From an archaeon (lineage in GTDB: Archaea > Nanobdellota > Nanobdellia > Pacearchaeales > GW2011-AR1), in the NCBI GenBank assembly GCA_009992215.1, contig JAACWB010000005.1, positions 16,676 to 80,675 of the forward strand: a stretch of 64,000 bases of DNA, in the 5' to 3' direction. Positions within the stretch are counted from its first letter, which is position 1, and each line of letters begins with the position of its first letter. The notes under the pieces are model-generated. The model was not told the DNA's origin. It worked only from the letters and a program-made list of their open reading frames with translations, and searched no databases. The position numbers were made by a program, and so were the translations under genes. This document shows positions 18,544 through 50,328 of the stretch, piece by piece.

Positions 18544-18623
18544 GCCTCCATCGCATAGTGGTATTGCACCGGACTTGAGATCCGGGCCCTTTGGGCTCGC
18601 AGGTTCGATTCCTGCTGGGGGCG
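18544..18623 (+). tRNA. tRNA-Ser (anticodon TGA), class II with long variable arm, no encoded CCA
   Basis: Hand fold: acceptor GCCTCCA/TGGGGGC, D arm GCA-TAGTGGTAT-TGC, anticodon arm CCGGA-CTTGAGA-TCCGG, variable arm GCCCTTTGGGCTC, T arm GCAGG-TTCGATT-CCTGC, discriminator G. Confidence 0.85.
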
Positions 18624-18737
18624 CTAAAAGAAGGGTTCTTCGGAGCCCTTTTTTTATTTTATTTTCTTTTAGCTTTCCACTGGTCCTCGCTTCGCTGTGG
18701 TTTCTCATATTTTTCAAATATTCCAAAAGGGGGCGCT
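18617..18737 (+). repeat. Direct repeat GGGGGCGCT (tRNA-Ser 3' end) at 18617-18625 and 18729-18737
   Basis: Exact 9-mer copies 112 nt apart, each followed by a UUCG-capped hairpin and a T tract. Confidence 0.9.
18631..18657 (+). terminator. Hairpin plus T tract after tRNA-Ser
   Basis: AAGGGTTC-TTCG-GAGCCCTT followed by TTTTTTT. Confidence 0.6.
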
Positions 18738-18741
18738 GAAT

Positions 18742-18770
18742 AAGGAACTCTTCGGAGTTCCTTTTTCTTT
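18742..18770 (+). terminator. Second UUCG hairpin plus T tract after the duplicated tRNA-Ser 3' end
   Basis: AAGGAACTC-TTCG-GAGTTCCTT followed by a T-rich run. Confidence 0.55.
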
Positions 18771-18809
18771 TTACTTAAAACTTAAAAATATCTTATTCAT
18801 AATTATAGG

Positions 18810-24551: not shown

Positions 24552-24706
24552 CGTATTTTTACTCCCAATCCGCAATTTCCTTTAAACAGTTACCTTCGAA
24601 ATAAGGGAAATTGGAATGTGTTCGCCTCCTACGCGTAAGCTCATGAAACAAGAATTGTCTGTTTCATCAGTTGTAGTTTATGGCTATGATTATTTTGGGA
24701 TACTTT

Positions 24707-24733: not shown

Positions 24734-25483
24734 TTATGAATAATTTATTGAAAAAACATGCTTGGTTAAAATATTTGCTAATTCTTTTGAATCAAAACAG
24801 GCACTCACTCCTTTAATTTTAACTAATTCATTTAATTTTTTATATTGTTCTATTACTTTTTTAAAATCAGTTCCATCTTTTTGGTATGAATAAGAAAGAG
24901 CGTCTAAAGGAGATTTATGTCCTGAAATAAAATCTCCAAACCAAAAAGCATAAGCCTCATTGGATTCATTACTAACTGATTCAGGCAACATCCAAAAAAT
25001 ATTACTATAACTAAAATCTTTTTTCATATTTATTCCCACATCTCTTTCTAAAAATTCATGAAATATTATGTGGCCATATTCATGAGAAATTATTAACTTA
25101 AAATTTTCTTCTGGAGAGATTCTTTTTTCAAGACCTTTTTCATTTAAAACTGTTCCAGGTTCCTGAAGATTTCCAACATAAAAATTTGTTAAGGGATGCC
25201 AAACTCCTTTTTTATCTCTTGTTGTAGCTCCTTGTGCTTCAATATTCCAAGAATAATAAATATTTCTTTTATCTAATTTAATTGGAGTCTTTTTGTTTAT
25301 TTTTTTGATAATTTCATTGTTAATTTCTTCTCCTCTTCCTTCAACTAAAGTTGAATTATCAAACCTTTCCTTTATTAAATATTGAATTAATTTTCTATCT
25401 TTCTCCATATCTTCTGAAAATTTAATTGGTTTCGGAGGATAAATTGAATTTTCTAAATTTAATTTATATTTTGATTTTGTCAT
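24734..25483 (-). CDS. Putative zinc metalloprotease-like protein (HExxH)
   Basis: Single HEYGH motif (LIISHEYGHIIFHEF). No further family assignment possible. Confidence 0.45.
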   Translation of the reverse strand: MTKSKYKLNLENSIYPPKPIKFSEDMEKDRKLIQYLIKERFDNSTLVEGRGEEINNEIIKKINKKTPIKLDKRNIYYSWNIEAQGATTRDKKGVWHPLTNFYVGNLQEPGTVLNEKGLEKRISPEENFKLIISHEYGHIIFHEFLERDVGINMKKDFSYSNIFWMLPESVSNESNEAYAFWFGDFISGHKSPLDALSYSYQKDGTDFKKVIEQYKKLNELVKIKGVSACFDSKELANILTKHVFSINYS

Positions 25484-25500
25484 AACTTTTACATGGTAAC

Positions 25501-25513
25501 AACTTTTATAAAG
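25501..25513 (+). promoter_or_regulatory. Candidate TATA box for the structured RNA gene
   Basis: AACTTTTATAAAG about 25-30 nt upstream of 25534. Same AACTTTTATAAA core as the r-protein promoters. Confidence 0.45.
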
Positions 25514-25533
25514 TTACTTATACTAAATTAGTT

Positions 25534-25930
25534 ACAAGTCAAGGAGCTAACTTTCGAGAGTCTGGCATTAAATTGTCGAGTGTTTGAAATGTGAACATTG
25601 ATTCTTGAGGAAGGTCCGCGCACCCCGAGTTTCCGTTATGGACTCTTAGGACAAAATCATCGAGGAAATCTCGAGCGTTGTGAAGCGCAGCTCTGGTACA
25701 GAAACGACACAGCTCATTTGGAGTTATGACTCTTGCGATGAACGGCGAAGAATGAGATTTGATGAAACGAGCATCTTGATTGGTGCAAGGGTAACAGTTA
25801 GTTTATAGTAAGTGATTGTTAGTTTTTAGCAAACACAGAAAAAATTAATGAAGTACGCCCGCTTAGTTGGATGTTAGCACATTTGGTCTGAATACAGCAA
25901 ATGACAGAACGTGGCCTAACCTTGACTTGT
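25534..25930 (+). ncRNA. rnpB: Structured ncRNA, probably RNase P RNA (core about 25543-25882; maximal span closed by an 11-bp terminal helix)
   Basis: ORF-free and visibly GC-richer than its flanks. CR-I-like GAGGAAGGTCCGCGCACCCC at about 25607-25626; GGTACAGAAACG; GGTGCAAGGGTAACAG; CR-V-like ACAGAA...CCCGCTTAG at about 25825-25865. AGCTAAC (25545-25551) pairs with GTTAGC (25873-25878). ACAAGTCAAGG (25534-25544) pairs with CCTTGACTTGT (25920-25930). I could not recover a clean P4 pairing by eye. Confidence 0.5.
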
Positions 25931-26037
25931 ATTTCTTTTCCACGTTCTTACAAAACGACCGGCAAATCAGGGATTTACCCATCGGACATAAAAGCTCACT
26001 TCATTCGGTTTCATGTCAGTGGACTACCTTGACTTGT
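25920..26037 (+). repeat. Direct repeat CCTTGACTTGT at 25920-25930 and 26027-26037; inverted copy at 25534-25544
   Basis: Exact 11-mers 107 nt apart. Extended similarity GGCCTAACCTTGACTTGT versus GGACTACCTTGACTTGT. Confidence 0.9.
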
Positions 26038-26047
26038 TTATTTTTAA

Positions 26048-26371
26048 TTAAAGAAAATTTTCTTCAAAATATAGTTTAGAATAATTTGGATGTCCTTCTT
26101 TCAAATCGTCTAAAAAACCCCACATGGATTTTGTTTGCATCCTACGATAACACCAAATTTCAGGGTTTATTTTTTCTTTCATTGGGTGCTCTGCATAAGG
26201 AATATTCGACCAATTTTTTTTATCTATTTCAATATATCCTCTTCCGTTTGTAACAATTCCTTCTATTAATTCATCAAGAGAACGCTCTTGTAAAAAAAAT
26301 TTTCCTTTTTTGTCTTCATATATTTTTCCAAGTACGGAATTTCCTGTTTCTTTACCTGCTGGAATTATCAT
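26048..26371 (-). CDS. Hypothetical protein (107 aa)
   Basis: ORF only. Confidence 0.4.
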   Translation of the reverse strand: MIIPAGKETGNSVLGKIYEDKKGKFFLQERSLDELIEGIVTNGRGYIEIDKKNWSNIPYAEHPMKEKINPEIWCYRRMQTKSMWGFLDDLKEGHPNYSKLYFEENFL

Positions 26372-26426
26372 AGTTGAAAAATAATATATTAGTTTTTAAC
26401 TATTTCTATTTAATAAAAAAGAAAAA

Positions 26427-26498
26427 TGGGAAGAGAGGGAGTCGAACCCTCGACTCCATGATCTTCAGTCATGTGCTCTCCCGCTGAGCTACCTTCCC
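26427..26498 (-). tRNA. tRNA-Phe (anticodon GAA)
   Basis: Minus strand: GGGAAGG-TA-GCTC-AGCGGGAGA-GAGC-A-CATGA-CTGAAGA-TCATG-GAGTC-GAGGG-TTCGACT-CCCTC-TCTTCCC-A. Confidence 0.9.
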
Positions 26499-26599
26499 AT
26501 GTTATATAATAGAACAGTTTTCTTTTTTAAAGTTTGTTAATTCCTTTTATCAGAACTTTTATAAATAAGTGTGAATATAATTTATTATTGAGGTTGATT

Positions 26600-27435: not shown

Positions 27436-27473
27436 TCCCTAATTTTTTAAATAAAAGAAGTTTAGAATTCTTG

Positions 27474-28811
27474 ATGAGTTTAGAAATATATAATACATTT
27501 AGTAAAAAGAAAGAAATCTTTAAACCAATTAATGAAAACGAAGTTAGAATGTATGTTTGTGGTCCAACGGTTAATGGAGTTCCTCATTTGGGTCATGCAA
27601 GAATGCAAATAGTTTTTGATGTATTTAGGAAATATTTGAAATTCTTAAATTACAAGGTAAAATTTGTTTCTAATGTAACTGATATTGAAGACAAAATAAT
27701 TTCTAAGGCAAAAGAAGAAGGAATTAGTATTGAAGAATTGACAAGAAAAAATTTGAAGGAACACATGGAAGATTACAAAGCAATTGGGATTTTAGAACCA
27801 GATGTTCAACCAAAGGCAACAGAGTATGTCCCAGAAATGATTGATTTAATTAAAAGGTTGGAAGAAAAAGGTTACACTTACATAATTCCGGAAGACGGAG
27901 TTTATTATAATGTTAGTAAGTTTCCTGATTATGGAAAATTGTCGGGTATTGATTTAACTGAACTTAGAAGTTCTCGTGAATTAAAGGATTTGACAAAGGG
28001 ACAAGAAAAAAGAGATTCAAAAGATTTTGTTTTGTGGAAATTTTCTAAAGCTGATGAACCAAGTTGGGATTCTCCTTGGGGCAAAGGGCGACCTGGTTGG
28101 CATATTGAATGTAGCGCAATGAATCATGCGATTTTAGGACTTCCAATAGATATTCATGCAGGAGGACAAGATTTGATTTTTCCCCACCACGAAGATGAAA
28201 TTGCTCAAGCAGAAGCAGGCTATGGAGAAAAATTTTGTAATTATTGGATGCATAACGGAATGGTTAATATTGAAAAAGTAAAAATGTCAAAGTCACTTGG
28301 AAATTTTACTACTATAAAAGATTTATTGAAAGAGTATCCTGGCGAAGTTATTAGATATTTTATAATTTCTGTTCATTATAGAAAACCTGTTGACTTTTCA
28401 AAAGAAAAACTTGACGAAGCTAAAATTTCTTATGAAAGACTGAAAAGATTGGTTTTGGATTTAGAGGATGATAAAAAAATAAATGAAAAATATTTGGAAG
28501 AATTTAAGGAAAACATGAATGAAGATTTGAATACTGCAGGGGGACTTCAAATTTTATGGAAAATTGTTCGTGACGATAAAGCAGAAGGTAGAGTAAACAC
28601 AATAAAAGAAATAGATAAAGTTTTTTCACTTAATTTATTTCAGAGAAAAGAAATTGAACTTCCAATTGCTGTTTCAGAATTATTAGATGAAAGAAAAAAA
28701 GTAAGAGAAGAAAAAAATTGGGCTTTAGCGGATGAACTTCGAGATAAAATAAAAGAATTAGGATTTTTGGTTAAAGATTCAAAAGAAGGTCAAGAAGTTT
28801 TGAAATTATAA
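27474..28811 (+). CDS. cysS: Cysteine--tRNA ligase
   Basis: HLGHAR (HIGH motif), KMSKSLGN (KMSKS motif), and WHIECSAM. Confidence 0.95.
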   Translation: MSLEIYNTFSKKKEIFKPINENEVRMYVCGPTVNGVPHLGHARMQIVFDVFRKYLKFLNYKVKFVSNVTDIEDKIISKAKEEGISIEELTRKNLKEHMEDYKAIGILEPDVQPKATEYVPEMIDLIKRLEEKGYTYIIPEDGVYYNVSKFPDYGKLSGIDLTELRSSRELKDLTKGQEKRDSKDFVLWKFSKADEPSWDSPWGKGRPGWHIECSAMNHAILGLPIDIHAGGQDLIFPHHEDEIAQAEAGYGEKFCNYWMHNGMVNIEKVKMSKSLGNFTTIKDLLKEYPGEVIRYFIISVHYRKPVDFSKEKLDEAKISYERLKRLVLDLEDDKKINEKYLEEFKENMNEDLNTAGGLQILWKIVRDDKAEGRVNTIKEIDKVFSLNLFQRKEIELPIAVSELLDERKKVREEKNWALADELRDKIKELGFLVKDSKEGQEVLKL

Positions 28812-28887: not shown

Positions 28888-30372
28888 ATGAAAAAATATC
28901 CTAAACAAATTCAGGAAATGTATGATTCTTTAAATGAAAAACAGCGAAGATATACAAATTTGGAATTAGCTAATCCAAAGAATGGAGAATATATGCTTGC
29001 AGTTTATCACCTTATTCCAGGTGGAGATTTAAACATGTTACAAGCCGCTGCTGAAGTTGCTGCTGAATCTTCTACGGGTACAAATTTTACAGTAAAAACT
29101 GAAACTGATTTTTCACATGAGATGAATGCCTTAACTTACAAAGTTGATTTGAAAAATAATTTAGTTTGGATGGCTTTTCCTTGGAGACTTTTTGATAGAG
29201 GAGGAAATATCCAAAATATTTTAACATATATCGTTGGAAATGTCCTTGGAATGAAAGAAATTAATGCATTAAAACTTCTTGATCTTTGGTTTCCACCTTC
29301 AATGCTTGAACAATATGATGGGCCAAGTTATACGCTTGAAGATATGAAAAAATATCTTGGAATATCAAAGAAGAAAGATAGACCTGTACTTGGAACAATT
29401 ATTAAACCAAAAATGGGATTAACGTCTTCAGAATATGCAGAAGTATGTTATGACTTTTGGAAAGGCGGAGGAGATTTTGTAAAAAATGATGAGCCTCAAG
29501 CTAATCAAGATTTTTGCCCTTATGACAAAATGGTCAAATATGTAAAAGAAGCAATGGACAAAGCCGTTAAAGAAACAGGGAACAAAAAAGTTCACTCATT
29601 TAATGTTTCGGCTTCTGATTATGATACTATGATTGAAAGATGTGAGATGATTCGTGCTGCCGGATTTGAACCTGGAAGTTATGCATTTTTAATTGATGGA
29701 CTTACTGCTGGATGGATGGCAGTTCAAACTCTAAGACGTAAATATCCTGATGTGTTTATTCATTTTCATAGAGCAATGCATGGTGCATTTACTCGTCCTG
29801 AAAATCCAATTGGATTTAGTGTTTTAATTCTTTCAAAGTTTGCAAGACTTGCAGGAGTAAGTGGTATTCATACAGGAACTGCAGGGGTTGGAAAAATGAA
29901 AGGAAATGCAAACGATGATATAATTCCCGCACATAATATTTTGTCTCTTATCGGAGAGGGATATTTCTTTGAACAATCATGGGCAAGAGTACCAAAAACT
30001 GACAAAGATGTTATACGATTAGCAAAGGAAGACCATCTTCACCACGTGATTTTGAGTGATGATTCATGGAGAGGAATGAAAAAGTGTGCGCCTATAATTT
30101 CTGGTGGCCTTAATCCAACTAAATTAAAGCCGTTTATTGATTTGATGAAGAGTACTGACTTTATTACTACAATGGGTGCTGGAGTTCATGCTCATCCTGA
30201 TGGTACTCAAGCTGGTGCAAAAGCATTAGTTCAAGCGATGGAAGCATATAACAAAAATATTTCCATAGATGTTTATGCAAAGACACATCCTGAACTAAAA
30301 AAGGCGATTGAATTTTTTACAAAACCAAAGAAAGAAGTTAAAGCGGAAGAATCTGTTGAGAAAGCAGCTTGA
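28888..30372 (+). CDS. rbcL: RuBisCO large subunit, form II/III-like
   Basis: GTIIKPKMGL; GGGDFVKNDEPQANQDFCP (form II-type KNDE, carbamyl-Lys and metal ligands intact); HFHRAMHGA; SGIHTGTAGVGKMKG. Confidence 0.9.
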   Translation: MKKYPKQIQEMYDSLNEKQRRYTNLELANPKNGEYMLAVYHLIPGGDLNMLQAAAEVAAESSTGTNFTVKTETDFSHEMNALTYKVDLKNNLVWMAFPWRLFDRGGNIQNILTYIVGNVLGMKEINALKLLDLWFPPSMLEQYDGPSYTLEDMKKYLGISKKKDRPVLGTIIKPKMGLTSSEYAEVCYDFWKGGGDFVKNDEPQANQDFCPYDKMVKYVKEAMDKAVKETGNKKVHSFNVSASDYDTMIERCEMIRAAGFEPGSYAFLIDGLTAGWMAVQTLRRKYPDVFIHFHRAMHGAFTRPENPIGFSVLILSKFARLAGVSGIHTGTAGVGKMKGNANDDIIPAHNILSLIGEGYFFEQSWARVPKTDKDVIRLAKEDHLHHVILSDDSWRGMKKCAPIISGGLNPTKLKPFIDLMKSTDFITTMGAGVHAHPDGTQAGAKALVQAMEAYNKNISIDVYAKTHPELKKAIEFFTKPKKEVKAEESVEKAA

Positions 30373-49147: not shown

Positions 49148-49212
49148 TATCAAAAGAAAAACTCTCTATATATAAAGGTTATTGGATTAGAAATTATTCT
49201 CATTTTTTAATT

Positions 49213-49336
49213 AATAAAAAAGAAAATGAAACGCTCAAATTTCTTTCTTTGAAATTTGGCAAAAACAAGCTTAGACTTCGCTTAAATCTTGTTTTGACGA
49301 CTTGTCGTCTTTTAATGAATAAAAAAGAAAATGAAA
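49213..49336 (-). repeat. Direct repeat AATAAAAAAGAAAATGAAA at 49213-49231 and 49318-49336 (5S trailer)
   Basis: Exact 19-mers 105 nt apart. Extends to 27 nt with one mismatch when the flanks are included. Confidence 0.9.
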
Positions 49337-49446
49337 GACGACTTGAACAGTTCGCGTCTTGCGGGACACTACCATGGACAACGTAGGAAGCTTAACTTCT
49401 GTGTTCGGAAAGGGAACAGGTGTTTCCAACCTACTATGGCCGTCTT
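49335..49446 (-). rRNA. rrf: 5S ribosomal RNA
   Basis: Minus strand: AAGACGGCCATAGTAGGTTGGAAACACCTGTTCCCTTTCCGAACACAGAAGTTAAGCTTCCTACGTTGTCCATGGTAGTGTCCCGCAAGACGCGAACTGTTCAAGTCGTCTT. Contains the CCGAAC...GAAGTTAAGC core, and the ends pair (helix I). Confidence 0.85.
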
Positions 49447-49466
49447 CAAATTTAGAGAAGCAATTG

Positions 49467-49592: not shown

Positions 49593-49667
49593 TTATTTGT
49601 CTGGGTAACTCGGCTCGCAAGCTTAATTGCAGTTAAGTTACTCTAGACAATGAAAGCAATTAAACAT

Positions 49668-49743
49668 GCCTGGGTAACTCAGTCTGGATTAGAGTGCCAC
49701 CCTCCTAAGGTGGAAGTCGCAGGTTCAAATCCTGCCTCGGGCG
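49668..49743 (+). tRNA. tRNA-Arg (anticodon CCT)
   Basis: GCCTGGG-TA-ACTC-AGTCTGGATTA-GAGT-G-CCACC-CTCCTAA-GGTGG-AAGTC-GCAGG-TTCAAAT-CCTGC-CTCGGGC-G. Confidence 0.9.
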
Positions 49744-49850
49744 TTTTAATTTGAACCAAGACGTCGCAGGCTAACAACTTTGAAATTTTAATAAATGAAT
49801 ATAATGAATTTAAGAAATTTCACAAGTTGATAGTAAAATCCTGCCTCGGG
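49727..49850 (+). repeat. Direct repeat AAATCCTGCCTCGGG (tRNA-Arg 3' end) at 49727-49741 and 49836-49850
   Basis: Exact 15-mers 109 nt apart. Confidence 0.9.
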
Positions 49851-49854
49851 AGTT

Positions 49855-50328
49855 TTATGCTATAAAGGTTAAGATTATTGCAACATAAAAAAGAGTTATC
49901 AGCTGTGTTGTTATAAAATATTTTGCTGAAATTTCATAATTATTCTTTAATTTGAAAGTTACATAAATAAAAATTATCCATTCTAAAAATAATACATGAA
50001 AATAAATAAAAAATTGATTAAAAAAAGTTATTGCAAGTGTTCTAACTCCTGCGATAATAACAAAAGACAAAACCATGTTGAATAAAAATATAGAAAAATA
50101 TTCTTTTCTTCTTTCTATTGCCCCAATTCTAATTTTTCTTGTTAATTTTTTTGAAAATTCTGAAAAGACAAAACCAAAACTAAGCCCAATAAACCAAGAG
50201 ATATATGGCTTAATATATGTAAAAATTGTCTCGAAGATGTTAAAATAATATAACTCAAAAAAAGTTATAATTCCCATTAAAAAAAATAAAGAAAATTCCA
50301 ATAAAAAGAAATTTTTCTTTTCACTCAT
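49855..50328 (-). CDS. Hypothetical polytopic membrane protein (157 aa)
   Basis: Four to five hydrophobic segments; no motif recognised. Confidence 0.4.
   Translation of the reverse strand: MSEKKNFFLLEFSLFFLMGIITFFELYYFNIFETIFTYIKPYISWFIGLSFGFVFSEFSKKLTRKIRIGAIERRKEYFSIFLFNMVLSFVIIAGVRTLAITFFNQFFIYFHVLFLEWIIFIYVTFKLKNNYEISAKYFITTQLITLFYVAIILTFIA

Follow-up and report, generated by a model that had tools for sequence, protein, structure and literature searches.

Duplicated gene ends at an RNase P RNA locus and at other stable-RNA genes of Pacearchaeota/Woesearchaeota-type archaea

Comparison cases for short duplications at the ends of stable-RNA genes include the non-canonical integration of spacers by Cas1-Cas2, and template-switch rearrangements of the fork stalling and template switching (FoSTeS) or microhomology-mediated break-induced replication (MMBIR) type, in which a duplication carries an embedded inverted segment. 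Partial copies of tRNA and tmRNA genes are found at the att sites of integrative elements, where ~44-bp repeats flank elements of 9-23 kb that carry integrases (PMC9897764), and the target-site duplication of a casposon sits at the 3' end of tRNA-Pro (PMC5137440). Here we describe a 64-kb stretch of archaeal DNA (64,000 nt of contig JAACWB010000005.1, assembly GCA_009992215.1; the window), which contains an RNase P RNA gene whose 3' end is repeated 107 nt downstream. The RNA is a genuine archaeal RNase P RNA and a slightly divergent member of the known family, and the repeat is one case of a frequent, non-random class of terminal duplication in this lineage of Pacearchaeota/Woesearchaeota-type DPANN genomes. 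The duplication of termini is short-range and strand-specific, affects ~15-25% of the sampled genes and both gene ends, and yields copies that co-evolve with their genes. A targeted full-text literature search on tRNA-end duplication and on RNase P RNA in DPANN archaea did not find the pattern described, and end duplication at stable-RNA genes in this lineage is apparently undescribed so far.

The RNase P RNA gene and the repeat of its 3' end

The gene occupies 25534-25930 on the + strand (397 nt; window coordinates throughout unless a locus is named). In a permissive Rfam scan of 25400-26150, the RF00373 model (RNaseP_arch) matches the + strand over model positions 1-288 with 83.6 bits (E 1.5e-23), 0.4 bit under the gathering score of 84 bits, and at the gathering threshold the window yields five tRNAs and one 5S rRNA only, with the RNase P RNA absent from the list. 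The score falls just short because the model fails to align the 5' strands of P1 and P2 correctly, and one orthologue (in L045; L numbers denote related loci) reaches 131.9 bits on the same model. Standard annotation can miss DPANN RNase P RNAs that lie just under the Rfam cut-off in this way. Orthologues are present in 36 related contigs, and in ten related loci, found by nhmmer with the window RNA as query, the orthologue adjoins rpL1. Helix tests were based on an alignment of 11 RNase P RNAs (A3; the window and 10 orthologues), in which 97.3% of cells across P1-P4 form standard pairs and both sides change in 24 of the 41 pairs; the helix score was matched by none of 500 shuffles, and slid controls were 27-46% paired. 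An exact metagenome search with the window's RNase P 3' end returned no matches.

Compared with the archaeal family (RF00373, type A-like), the window RNA has all of the core elements in P1-P2-P3 order and a full-length model alignment, with conserved region (CR) I, GAGGAAGGUCC, and CR-V, ACAGAACGUGGCCUAA, forming P4 with a bulged U, and with the blocks ACAGAAACGACAC and AUGAAACG present. It differs in its P3, which is branched and comprises three helices, in a 53-nt insertion (25797-25849), and in the partial copy of its own 3' end downstream. The GAGGAAAGUCC-like CR-I at 25607-25621 and the CR-V of the form ACAGAA..GGCyUA at 25904-25919 come together in P4, in which 25612-25620 pairs with 25910-17 to give 8 bp and the usual bulged U; this helix is 98.9% paired in the 11 sequences and includes one compensatory G-C/C-G swap that is specific to the window and L010. 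The blocks ACAGAAACGACAC and AUGAAACG, which belong to the CR-II/III region of the specificity domain, align to RF00373 with high posterior probability and are kept in the six orthologues in A3 that have that block. The sequence-only reading of this DNA had proposed an RNase P RNA with some doubt, having been unable to draw P4 cleanly, and had suggested an Rfam model search and comparative folding of orthologous loci; both the RF00373 match on the + strand and the covariation of P1-P4 bear out the assignment and make it much firmer than had been supposed. It had taken as its landmark for CR-V the ACAGAA at 25835-25840, which lies in the genome-specific 53-nt insertion, and its difficulty with P4 arose for this reason.

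The 11-mer CCTTGACTTGT, the reverse complement of the P1 5' strand ACAAGTCAAGG, occurs exactly at 25920-25930 and again at 26027-26037, a spacing of 107 nt, within the extended contexts GGCCTAACCTTGACTTGT and GGACTACCTTGACTTGT, as the sequence-only reading had described, and there is no further exact copy in the 64-kb window. The chance that an 11-mer recurs on the same strand within 300 nt is ~7e-5. The whole 564-nt intergenic region, repeat unit included, is identical in six independent assemblies (JGI, ENA, Logan), and the repeat is therefore not an assembly artefact. The first copy is the functional 3' end of the RNA and closes P1. The earlier proposal that the 5' end has two alternative distal partners is literally true of the sequence, while nothing shows that the second partner is used; indeed, no ACAGAA precedes the second copy, which therefore could not replace the native 3' domain. 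Along the + strand the locus is made up as follows.

25504-25513, + strand: TATA-like box TTTTATAAAG, read from the sequence, with its centre ~26 nt upstream of 25534; putative promoter element
25534-25544, + strand: P1 5' strand ACAAGTCAAGG, which pairs with 25920-25930; 6 of 11 pairs change on both sides and 94% of cells are paired
25546-25551, + strand: P2 5' strand GCTAAC, with its partner GTTAGC at 25873-25878; 100% paired, three compensatory pairs
25556-25606, + strand: extended P3, an outer stem (25556-62/25600-06) around hairpins at 25564-77 and 25580-98
25607-25621, + strand: CR-I and P4 5' strand GAGGAAGGTCCGCGC, invariant in 11 of 11 sequences of A3
25797-25849, + strand: 53-nt insertion; A3 columns 265-317 are gaps in all 10 others
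25904-25919, + strand: CR-V ACAGAACGTGGCCTAA, including the P4 3' strand; aligns to ACAGAAGGgGGcUUA of the model and is near-invariant across A3
25920-25930, + strand: P1 3' strand, first copy of CCTTGACTTGT, directly after CR-V as in all orthologues
25931-25939, + strand: T-rich stretch ATTTCTTTT, a weak terminator-like run past the mature 3' end; putative terminator
25940-25948, + strand: inverted copy CCACGTTCT, 9/9 complementary to AGAACGTGG (25906-25914) in the region of the P4 3' strand
25949-26018, + strand: insert of unknown origin, ~70 nt, with ~43% G+C against 20-27% in the flanks
26019-26037, + strand: second copy of the 3' end (GTGGACTA-CCTTGACTTGT), exact over its final 12 nt and with one mismatch and one indel further 5'; the gene end is repeated over 12-29 bases in all
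26038-26047, + strand: T-run TTATTTTTAA, probably the original terminator, which abuts the stop codon of a convergent 107-aa open reading frame (ORF)

The TATA-like box, already pointed out in the earlier reading, has a counterpart in the orthologues, where TTTATAAA stands at the same distance. Both sides change in 14 of the 16 pairs of P3 (helices 3-5), and CCCGCTTA is part of a conserved stretch before the P2 3' strand that we label CR-IV-like. The 3' strand of the inner helix (P2) is separated from the first copy by 41 nt, as had been stated, and these are a normal hairpin followed by CR-V. The T-rich stretch after the 3' end has 4-6 T in 8 of 10 orthologues, three in L040 and none in L045. 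As observations in their own right, the 53-nt insertion contains an imperfect 15-nt direct repeat (GTTAGTTTATAGTAA and GTTAGTTTTTAGCAA, 21 nt apart) besides its decoy ACAGAA, and the RNase P RNAs of the lineage come in two forms, with or without a ~40-nt element of the specificity domain (A3 columns 176-214, window 25708-25746), which is present in the window, L009, L040, L042, L036 and L045 and absent from L010, L020, L031, L044 and L028.

The unit that ends in the second copy (25931-26037) has the stems that had been read from it, namely AGAACGTGG/CCACGTTCT, an inverted repeat that is perfect over 9 bp, encloses the first copy and includes a window-specific C, and GACAT/ATGTC. Within the insert, GCAAATCAGGG (25962-72) is like the P1 5' strand, with 8 of 11 positions the same, and is able to base-pair with the second copy. 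On the + strand the unit folds no better than its shuffles (z -0.86); on the minus strand, where it begins with the RNase P RNA's first 11 nt, z is -2.3 and 5 of 200 shuffles are as stable. An Rfam scan found no match to the unit at E up to 10 in the window or to units at E up to 1 in four loci. The unit holds no credible ORF, as had been stated, the only ORFs being of 43-70 aa and overlapping the RNA, and the 95 nt between the two copies contain neither an ORF nor mobile element genes. The insert shows no similarity to other units, the rest of the window, the 55 related loci or, by BLAST, phage records, and the two insert fragments tested have no exact match among viral contigs, which for 25949-26018 were probed with one exact 29-mer only.

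Downstream, the convergent 107-aa ORF (26048-26371, - strand) is an orphan that belongs to no Pfam family and has no relatives in species-representative genomes. The relatives L010, L036, L042 and L044 have tRNA-Phe directly after the RNase P RNA on the same strand. The window (26048-26545), L045 and L020, which are the three genome-collection loci with an RNase P 3' repeat, have tRNA-Phe inverted together with its promoter and an ORF in between.

Recurrence at tRNA, 5S rRNA and RNase P RNA genes

The tRNA census covered the window and 55 related loci (818 kb, 68 tRNAs) from an rpL1-based scan of species-representative genomes, and scored a tail copy where at least a 10-mer of the last 24 nt recurred within 400 nt downstream, and a head copy where the first 24 nt were matched within 300 nt upstream. 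By these tests the 3' end is repeated downstream in 12 of the 68 tRNA genes and the 5' end is repeated upstream in nine, in a census that lies within the lineage (only six tRNAs are on metagenome contigs without an RNase P match) and in which several events are orthologous and so not independent. Matched controls at 10-mers (tails sought upstream, heads sought downstream, and reverse complements) were all zero, and inverted or internal direct copies around tRNAs were not above controls. RNase P RNA genes repeat their own 3' end in 8 of 37 cases (the window, ten rpL1-linked loci and, from a metagenome scan with the CR-V string, 26 genes with enough downstream sequence), at spacings of 58-132 nt, plus L180, which has two tandem units of ~125 nt; the caveats on the tRNA census apply to this count as well. 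Taking RNase P and tRNA genes together, the downstream 3'-end repeats lie 43-250 nt away.

In the window itself, the spacing at the RNase P locus resembles that of the tRNA and 5S duplications, as had been remarked earlier: the 3' end of tRNA-Arg recurs 109 nt downstream, that of tRNA-Gly 121 nt and that of tRNA-Ser ~115 nt downstream, and the 5S 3' flank recurs at 105 nt. The downstream copy of the tRNA-Arg end (region 49727-49857) is 22 nt long, and the helix that closes it is T-stem-like and surrounds a hairpin of 16 bp (fold z -3.6). The same gene (49667-49744) has its first 13 nt copied 69 nt upstream (region 49598-49666), where it makes up a hairpin together with its own inverted copy, which lies between tRNA-Leu and tRNA-Arg. 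The tRNA-Ser 3' end is GGGGGCGCT (region 18616-18775), and each of its two copies is followed by a UUCG-tetraloop hairpin and a T-run, the two hairpins differing in sequence and keeping their pairing (AAGGGTTC/GAGCCCTT and AAGGAACTC/GAGTTCCTT). The 5S rRNA gene (49333-49447, - strand) ends in CAAGTCGTC, which recurs 41 nt downstream (region 49197-49345) inside a 14-nt palindrome (49296-49309), and its T-rich 35-nt 3' flank (49302-36) recurs at 49197-49231. No end copy was found for the window's tRNA-Phe and tRNA-Leu.

The events have a common anatomy. The repeated block, 10-33 nt long, starts in a loop, which is the T-loop for tails and the D-loop for heads, or, in RNase P RNA, at the start of the P4 3' strand or later, and it extends beyond the mature RNA by 0-10 nt at the 3' end or by 2-5 nt at the 5' end. 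The copies therefore overrun the mature ends, and must have been copied from DNA or a primary transcript and not from mature RNA. Inserts in single events are 23-137 nt long, the 236 nt of L180 being a double unit. In the four loci checked, outer head copies stand at promoter distance and a 23-63 nt leader separates them from the real tRNA, so that the transcript would start with a spare head; at the other end, some loci, such as the L045 RNase P gene and the window's tRNA-Gly, have a T-run after the outer copy and no good one after the inner copy, and the insert must there be transcribed as a trailer. Of the eight second copies at RNase P, five (window, L020, L045, L075 and L109) visibly have CATAAA, GTGTAA or TCAG at the position of the conserved ACAGAA, and the catalytic core therefore cannot be rebuilt from them.

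The distribution is patchy. The repeat is present in L112 and absent from L096, whose RNase P RNAs are 96% identical, although the downstream genes of the two differ and the comparison of empty with filled site is thus uninformative. In L015, L018 and L030 the 5' and 3' events arise independently, tandem arrays of the RNase P tail occur in L020 and L180, and the L075 RNase P repeat is perfect over 33/33 nt, which together with the patchy distribution points to ongoing turnover. Scaffold gaps of 100 N in public metagenome-assembled genomes fall inside the D-loop of a tRNA-Ser (L009:10366-10465), inside the RNase P tail array (L020:4693-4792) and just after an RNase P gene (L028:6198-6297). In other assemblies, then, gaps stand at or beside three such sites, of which two are verified repeats. 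Real local repeats would be expected to have this effect, and it seems that they interrupt short-read assembly and that counts of them may be too low.

Elsewhere in the window, neighboring genes are rpL1, rpL10, CysRS (27471-28811) and, adjoining the last, a 494-aa ORF (28888-30372) whose translation by eye resembles a form III RuBisCO large subunit. These neighbors, together with the rpL1-based scan, are what assigns the organism to the Pacearchaeota/Woesearchaeota-type DPANN archaea. The 5' untranslated region (UTR) of rpL1 (window 24552-24700, - strand; L009-L062) contains an element conserved in ~50 related loci, CCGAUUGAACCAUAUCG - hairpin - CGCAUAAUUUGGGAGG or the variant AACUACAUCG...GUAGGAGG, which is presumably the L1 autoregulatory site and had no Rfam match in the one locus scanned (L029). 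Several loci, the window included (24580-24625), have an extra hairpin between this element and the start codon, and in some it is flanked by a direct repeat (TGGGAGATTA twice in L049, AGGATAA twice in L020). A separate hairpin motif, GAGCrAUUwCG-UGGUA-GAG...CUC-GUr-CG...GGGAG, with a covarying stem, is found in tRNA-Ser/Thr trailers and in rpL1 or nusG-like 5' UTRs of different genomes (L029:269-337, L038:1930-1997, L056:1196-1264 on the - strand, L045:11575-11657 on the - strand, and L051:7777-7846), and matches no Rfam family. As a shared element behind the duplications this motif (CGAGCrAUU..UGGUAGAG..CUCGUrCG..GGGAG, covariance model R1) was rejected, having only seven instances in 818 kb and none at RNase P, and its reading as an L1-binding site was dropped, the real conserved rpL1 leader being a different element.

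Origin and possible role of the duplicated ends

We infer that the second copy was probably, if by no means certainly, produced by a DNA-level duplicative insertion inside the transcription unit. It would then be a partial duplicate of the 3' terminus of the gene, made of the P1 3' strand with some of the P4 3' strand before it and the beginning of the T-run after it, and the 107 nt would be a trailer that is transcribed only on read-through and stays outside the active ribozyme. Insertions of this kind would recur at both ends of stable-RNA genes in the Pacearchaeota/Woesearchaeota-like lineage, and the survivors would be only those events that leave one intact gene copy, which would explain both why the block runs from an internal loop to just past the mature end and why a promoter or strong T-run lies beside the outer copy in several loci. 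A possible route is staggered-break insertion with a long target-site duplication (Cas1- or casposase-like; cf. PMC5137440). Alternatively, replication may have switched templates, as suggested by the direct-inverted-direct layout at RNase P, at 5S and upstream of tRNA-Arg, with the caveat that an inverted match of at least 7 nt occurs in only 2/7 duplicated RNase P loci, against 0/29 unduplicated ones.

Several observations weigh against this explanation. The outer copies still match the gene ends exactly, whereas the intervening inserts are down to 50-78% identity, and the copies track lineage variants, with GGGGGCG or GGAGGCG in both tRNA-Ser copies, CTGAC or CCAAC in both RNase P copies, and ...CTTGT in both copies of the window, a tracking that needs gene conversion or selection. 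A hairpin immediately 5' of the second RNase P copy persists in several lineages with its sequence changed, the ~43% G+C of the window's insert stands against 20-27% in the spacers of the genome, and head and tail copies fall on the same tRNA gene in six cases where 1.6 are expected (Fisher p 5e-4). Moreover, neither an enzyme, a donor sequence nor a consistent duplication length was found (repeats of 10-33 nt, inserts of 23-137 nt). Gene conversion could explain the identity of the copies and the tracking of variants, though not obviously the remaining points in favor of function. The identity and tracking of the copies, the co-occurrence, the hairpins and the G+C are also points for an explanation by selection, in which the duplicated ends are RNA elements, a spare 5' head at the start of the transcript and/or a 3' tail before the terminator. 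One spare end might base-pair with the other, or might vie with the native strand, giving a nested terminal helix that protects the ends or guides processing; such ends might also supply a back-up terminator or, in the case of RNase P RNA, switch off the transcripts made by read-through. The co-occurring head and tail copies are the two strands of the acceptor stem and could pair as a 7-bp acceptor-like helix, units keep their orthologous place in genomes with L1 proteins that are only a 66-72% match to that of the window, the hairpins after both window tRNA-Ser copies also keep their pairing as their sequences differ, and the anti-P4 9-mer of the window matches even the window-specific base. 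We nonetheless consider selection unlikely, because ~78% of the lineage's RNase P genes and >80% of its tRNA genes, closest relatives included, have no such unit, and the units vary in length and sequence with no common structure, the RNase P unit folding like shuffled sequence; because the RNase P RNA has no head copy and its second tail, with no ACAGAA, lies behind a T-rich stretch; and because gene conversion between nearby repeats could mimic co-evolution. Its widest form, that a sizeable fraction of stable-RNA precursors in Pacearchaeota-like DPANN archaea begin or end with a selected spare terminus governing termination, end protection and read-through quality control, is likewise a tentative proposal, possible but rather doubtful.

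That the copies are attL/attR-type scars of a virus, plasmid or casposon-like element, later almost wholly deleted, has in its favor that the 3' ends of stable RNAs are classic integration sites, at which part of the gene is left behind as a direct repeat (PMC9897764), that a casposase duplicates 15 bp overlapping the tRNA-Pro 3' end (PMC5137440), and that in the window, L045 and L020 the downstream region has been rearranged, with tRNA-Phe inverted and an unrelated ORF intervening. We judge it improbable, as no integrase, terminal inverted repeats or element body is seen and the inserts of single repeat pairs reach only 23-137 nt, the units share no sequence, the searches of the insert against phage records and of two insert fragments, as exact strings, against viral contigs were negative, and 5'-end duplications past the promoter, like insert-flanking repeats in the rpL1 5' UTR, are unexpected for att sites. 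In addition, no tRNA-end copy lies beyond 400 nt in any of the 57 sequences scanned (the window and 56 loci), and a kb-scale integrated element was therefore rejected. Related to the proposal of selected spare termini, and as tentative, is the variant that the duplications may be footprints of an unrecognized integrase-like activity, Cas1-like and with a long staggered cut, aimed at the ends of structured-RNA genes. It is very improbable indeed that the 107-nt unit is a small RNA gene of its own, on one strand or the other, that happens to share its end with the RNase P RNA: its elevated G+C and the somewhat better-than-shuffled fold of the minus strand would fit, but neither strand has a promoter-like box at the right distance, the unit has no Rfam match and no significant fold on the plus strand, and the insert is not conserved, units in other genomes being unrelated in sequence. 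Other candidates were set aside. A multicopy mobile insert, of the kind of a miniature inverted-repeat transposable element, is at odds with the non-homology of units at different loci, as the five window units show no mutual similarity in pairwise comparison on both strands and BLAST of ten units against the 818 kb retrieves orthologous units only; C/D-box, K-turn and bulge-helix-bulge readings of the unit boundaries gave no fit by inspection; a decayed tandem copy of the whole gene disagrees with unit lengths and collinearity; and a CRISPR array does not suit a window with two copies and no array in 64 kb, nor the L020 array, whose tandem units carry identical 'spacers'.

If the duplications are purely mutational, they mark an unusual process of insertion or repair on highly structured, highly transcribed genes in reduced genomes, and would also account for scaffold breaks and possible mis-annotation at these loci. 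If they are selected, they would amount to a new level of organization in the precursors of stable RNAs in archaea, and the 3' repeat at RNase P would be a working part of the system and not a scar.

Comparison with described integration and rearrangement systems

The likeness to the att sites of integrative elements lies in the direct repeat of the 3' part of a stable RNA, extending slightly past the gene and placed downstream of an intact gene. The difference is that the repeats described here flank 23-137 nt without genes, and that 5' ends, RNase P RNA and 5S rRNA are affected as well.

With integration by the Cas1 family the duplications have in common that a long duplication overlaps the 3' end or the T-loop region of a stable-RNA gene, and the apparently youngest events, with a 22-33 nt repeat and a 29-39 nt insert, are in the size range of CRISPR repeats and spacers. 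In contrast to that family, the duplications vary in length (10-33 nt), and the inserts lack terminal inverted repeats and have nothing in common at their ends; neither cas1 nor a CRISPR array is seen in the window, the rest of the genome not having been searched for cas1, and neither the 5' head duplications nor the identical 'spacers' of the L020 tandem units find an explanation there. The comparison with template switching rests on the layout, in which a direct, a short inverted and a direct segment follow one another at RNase P (AGAACGTGG...CCACGTTCT...second copy), at 5S (GTCGTC...GACGAC-AAGTCGTC) and upstream of tRNA-Arg, while the duplications here differ from such rearrangements in that most of each insert has no detectable local template.

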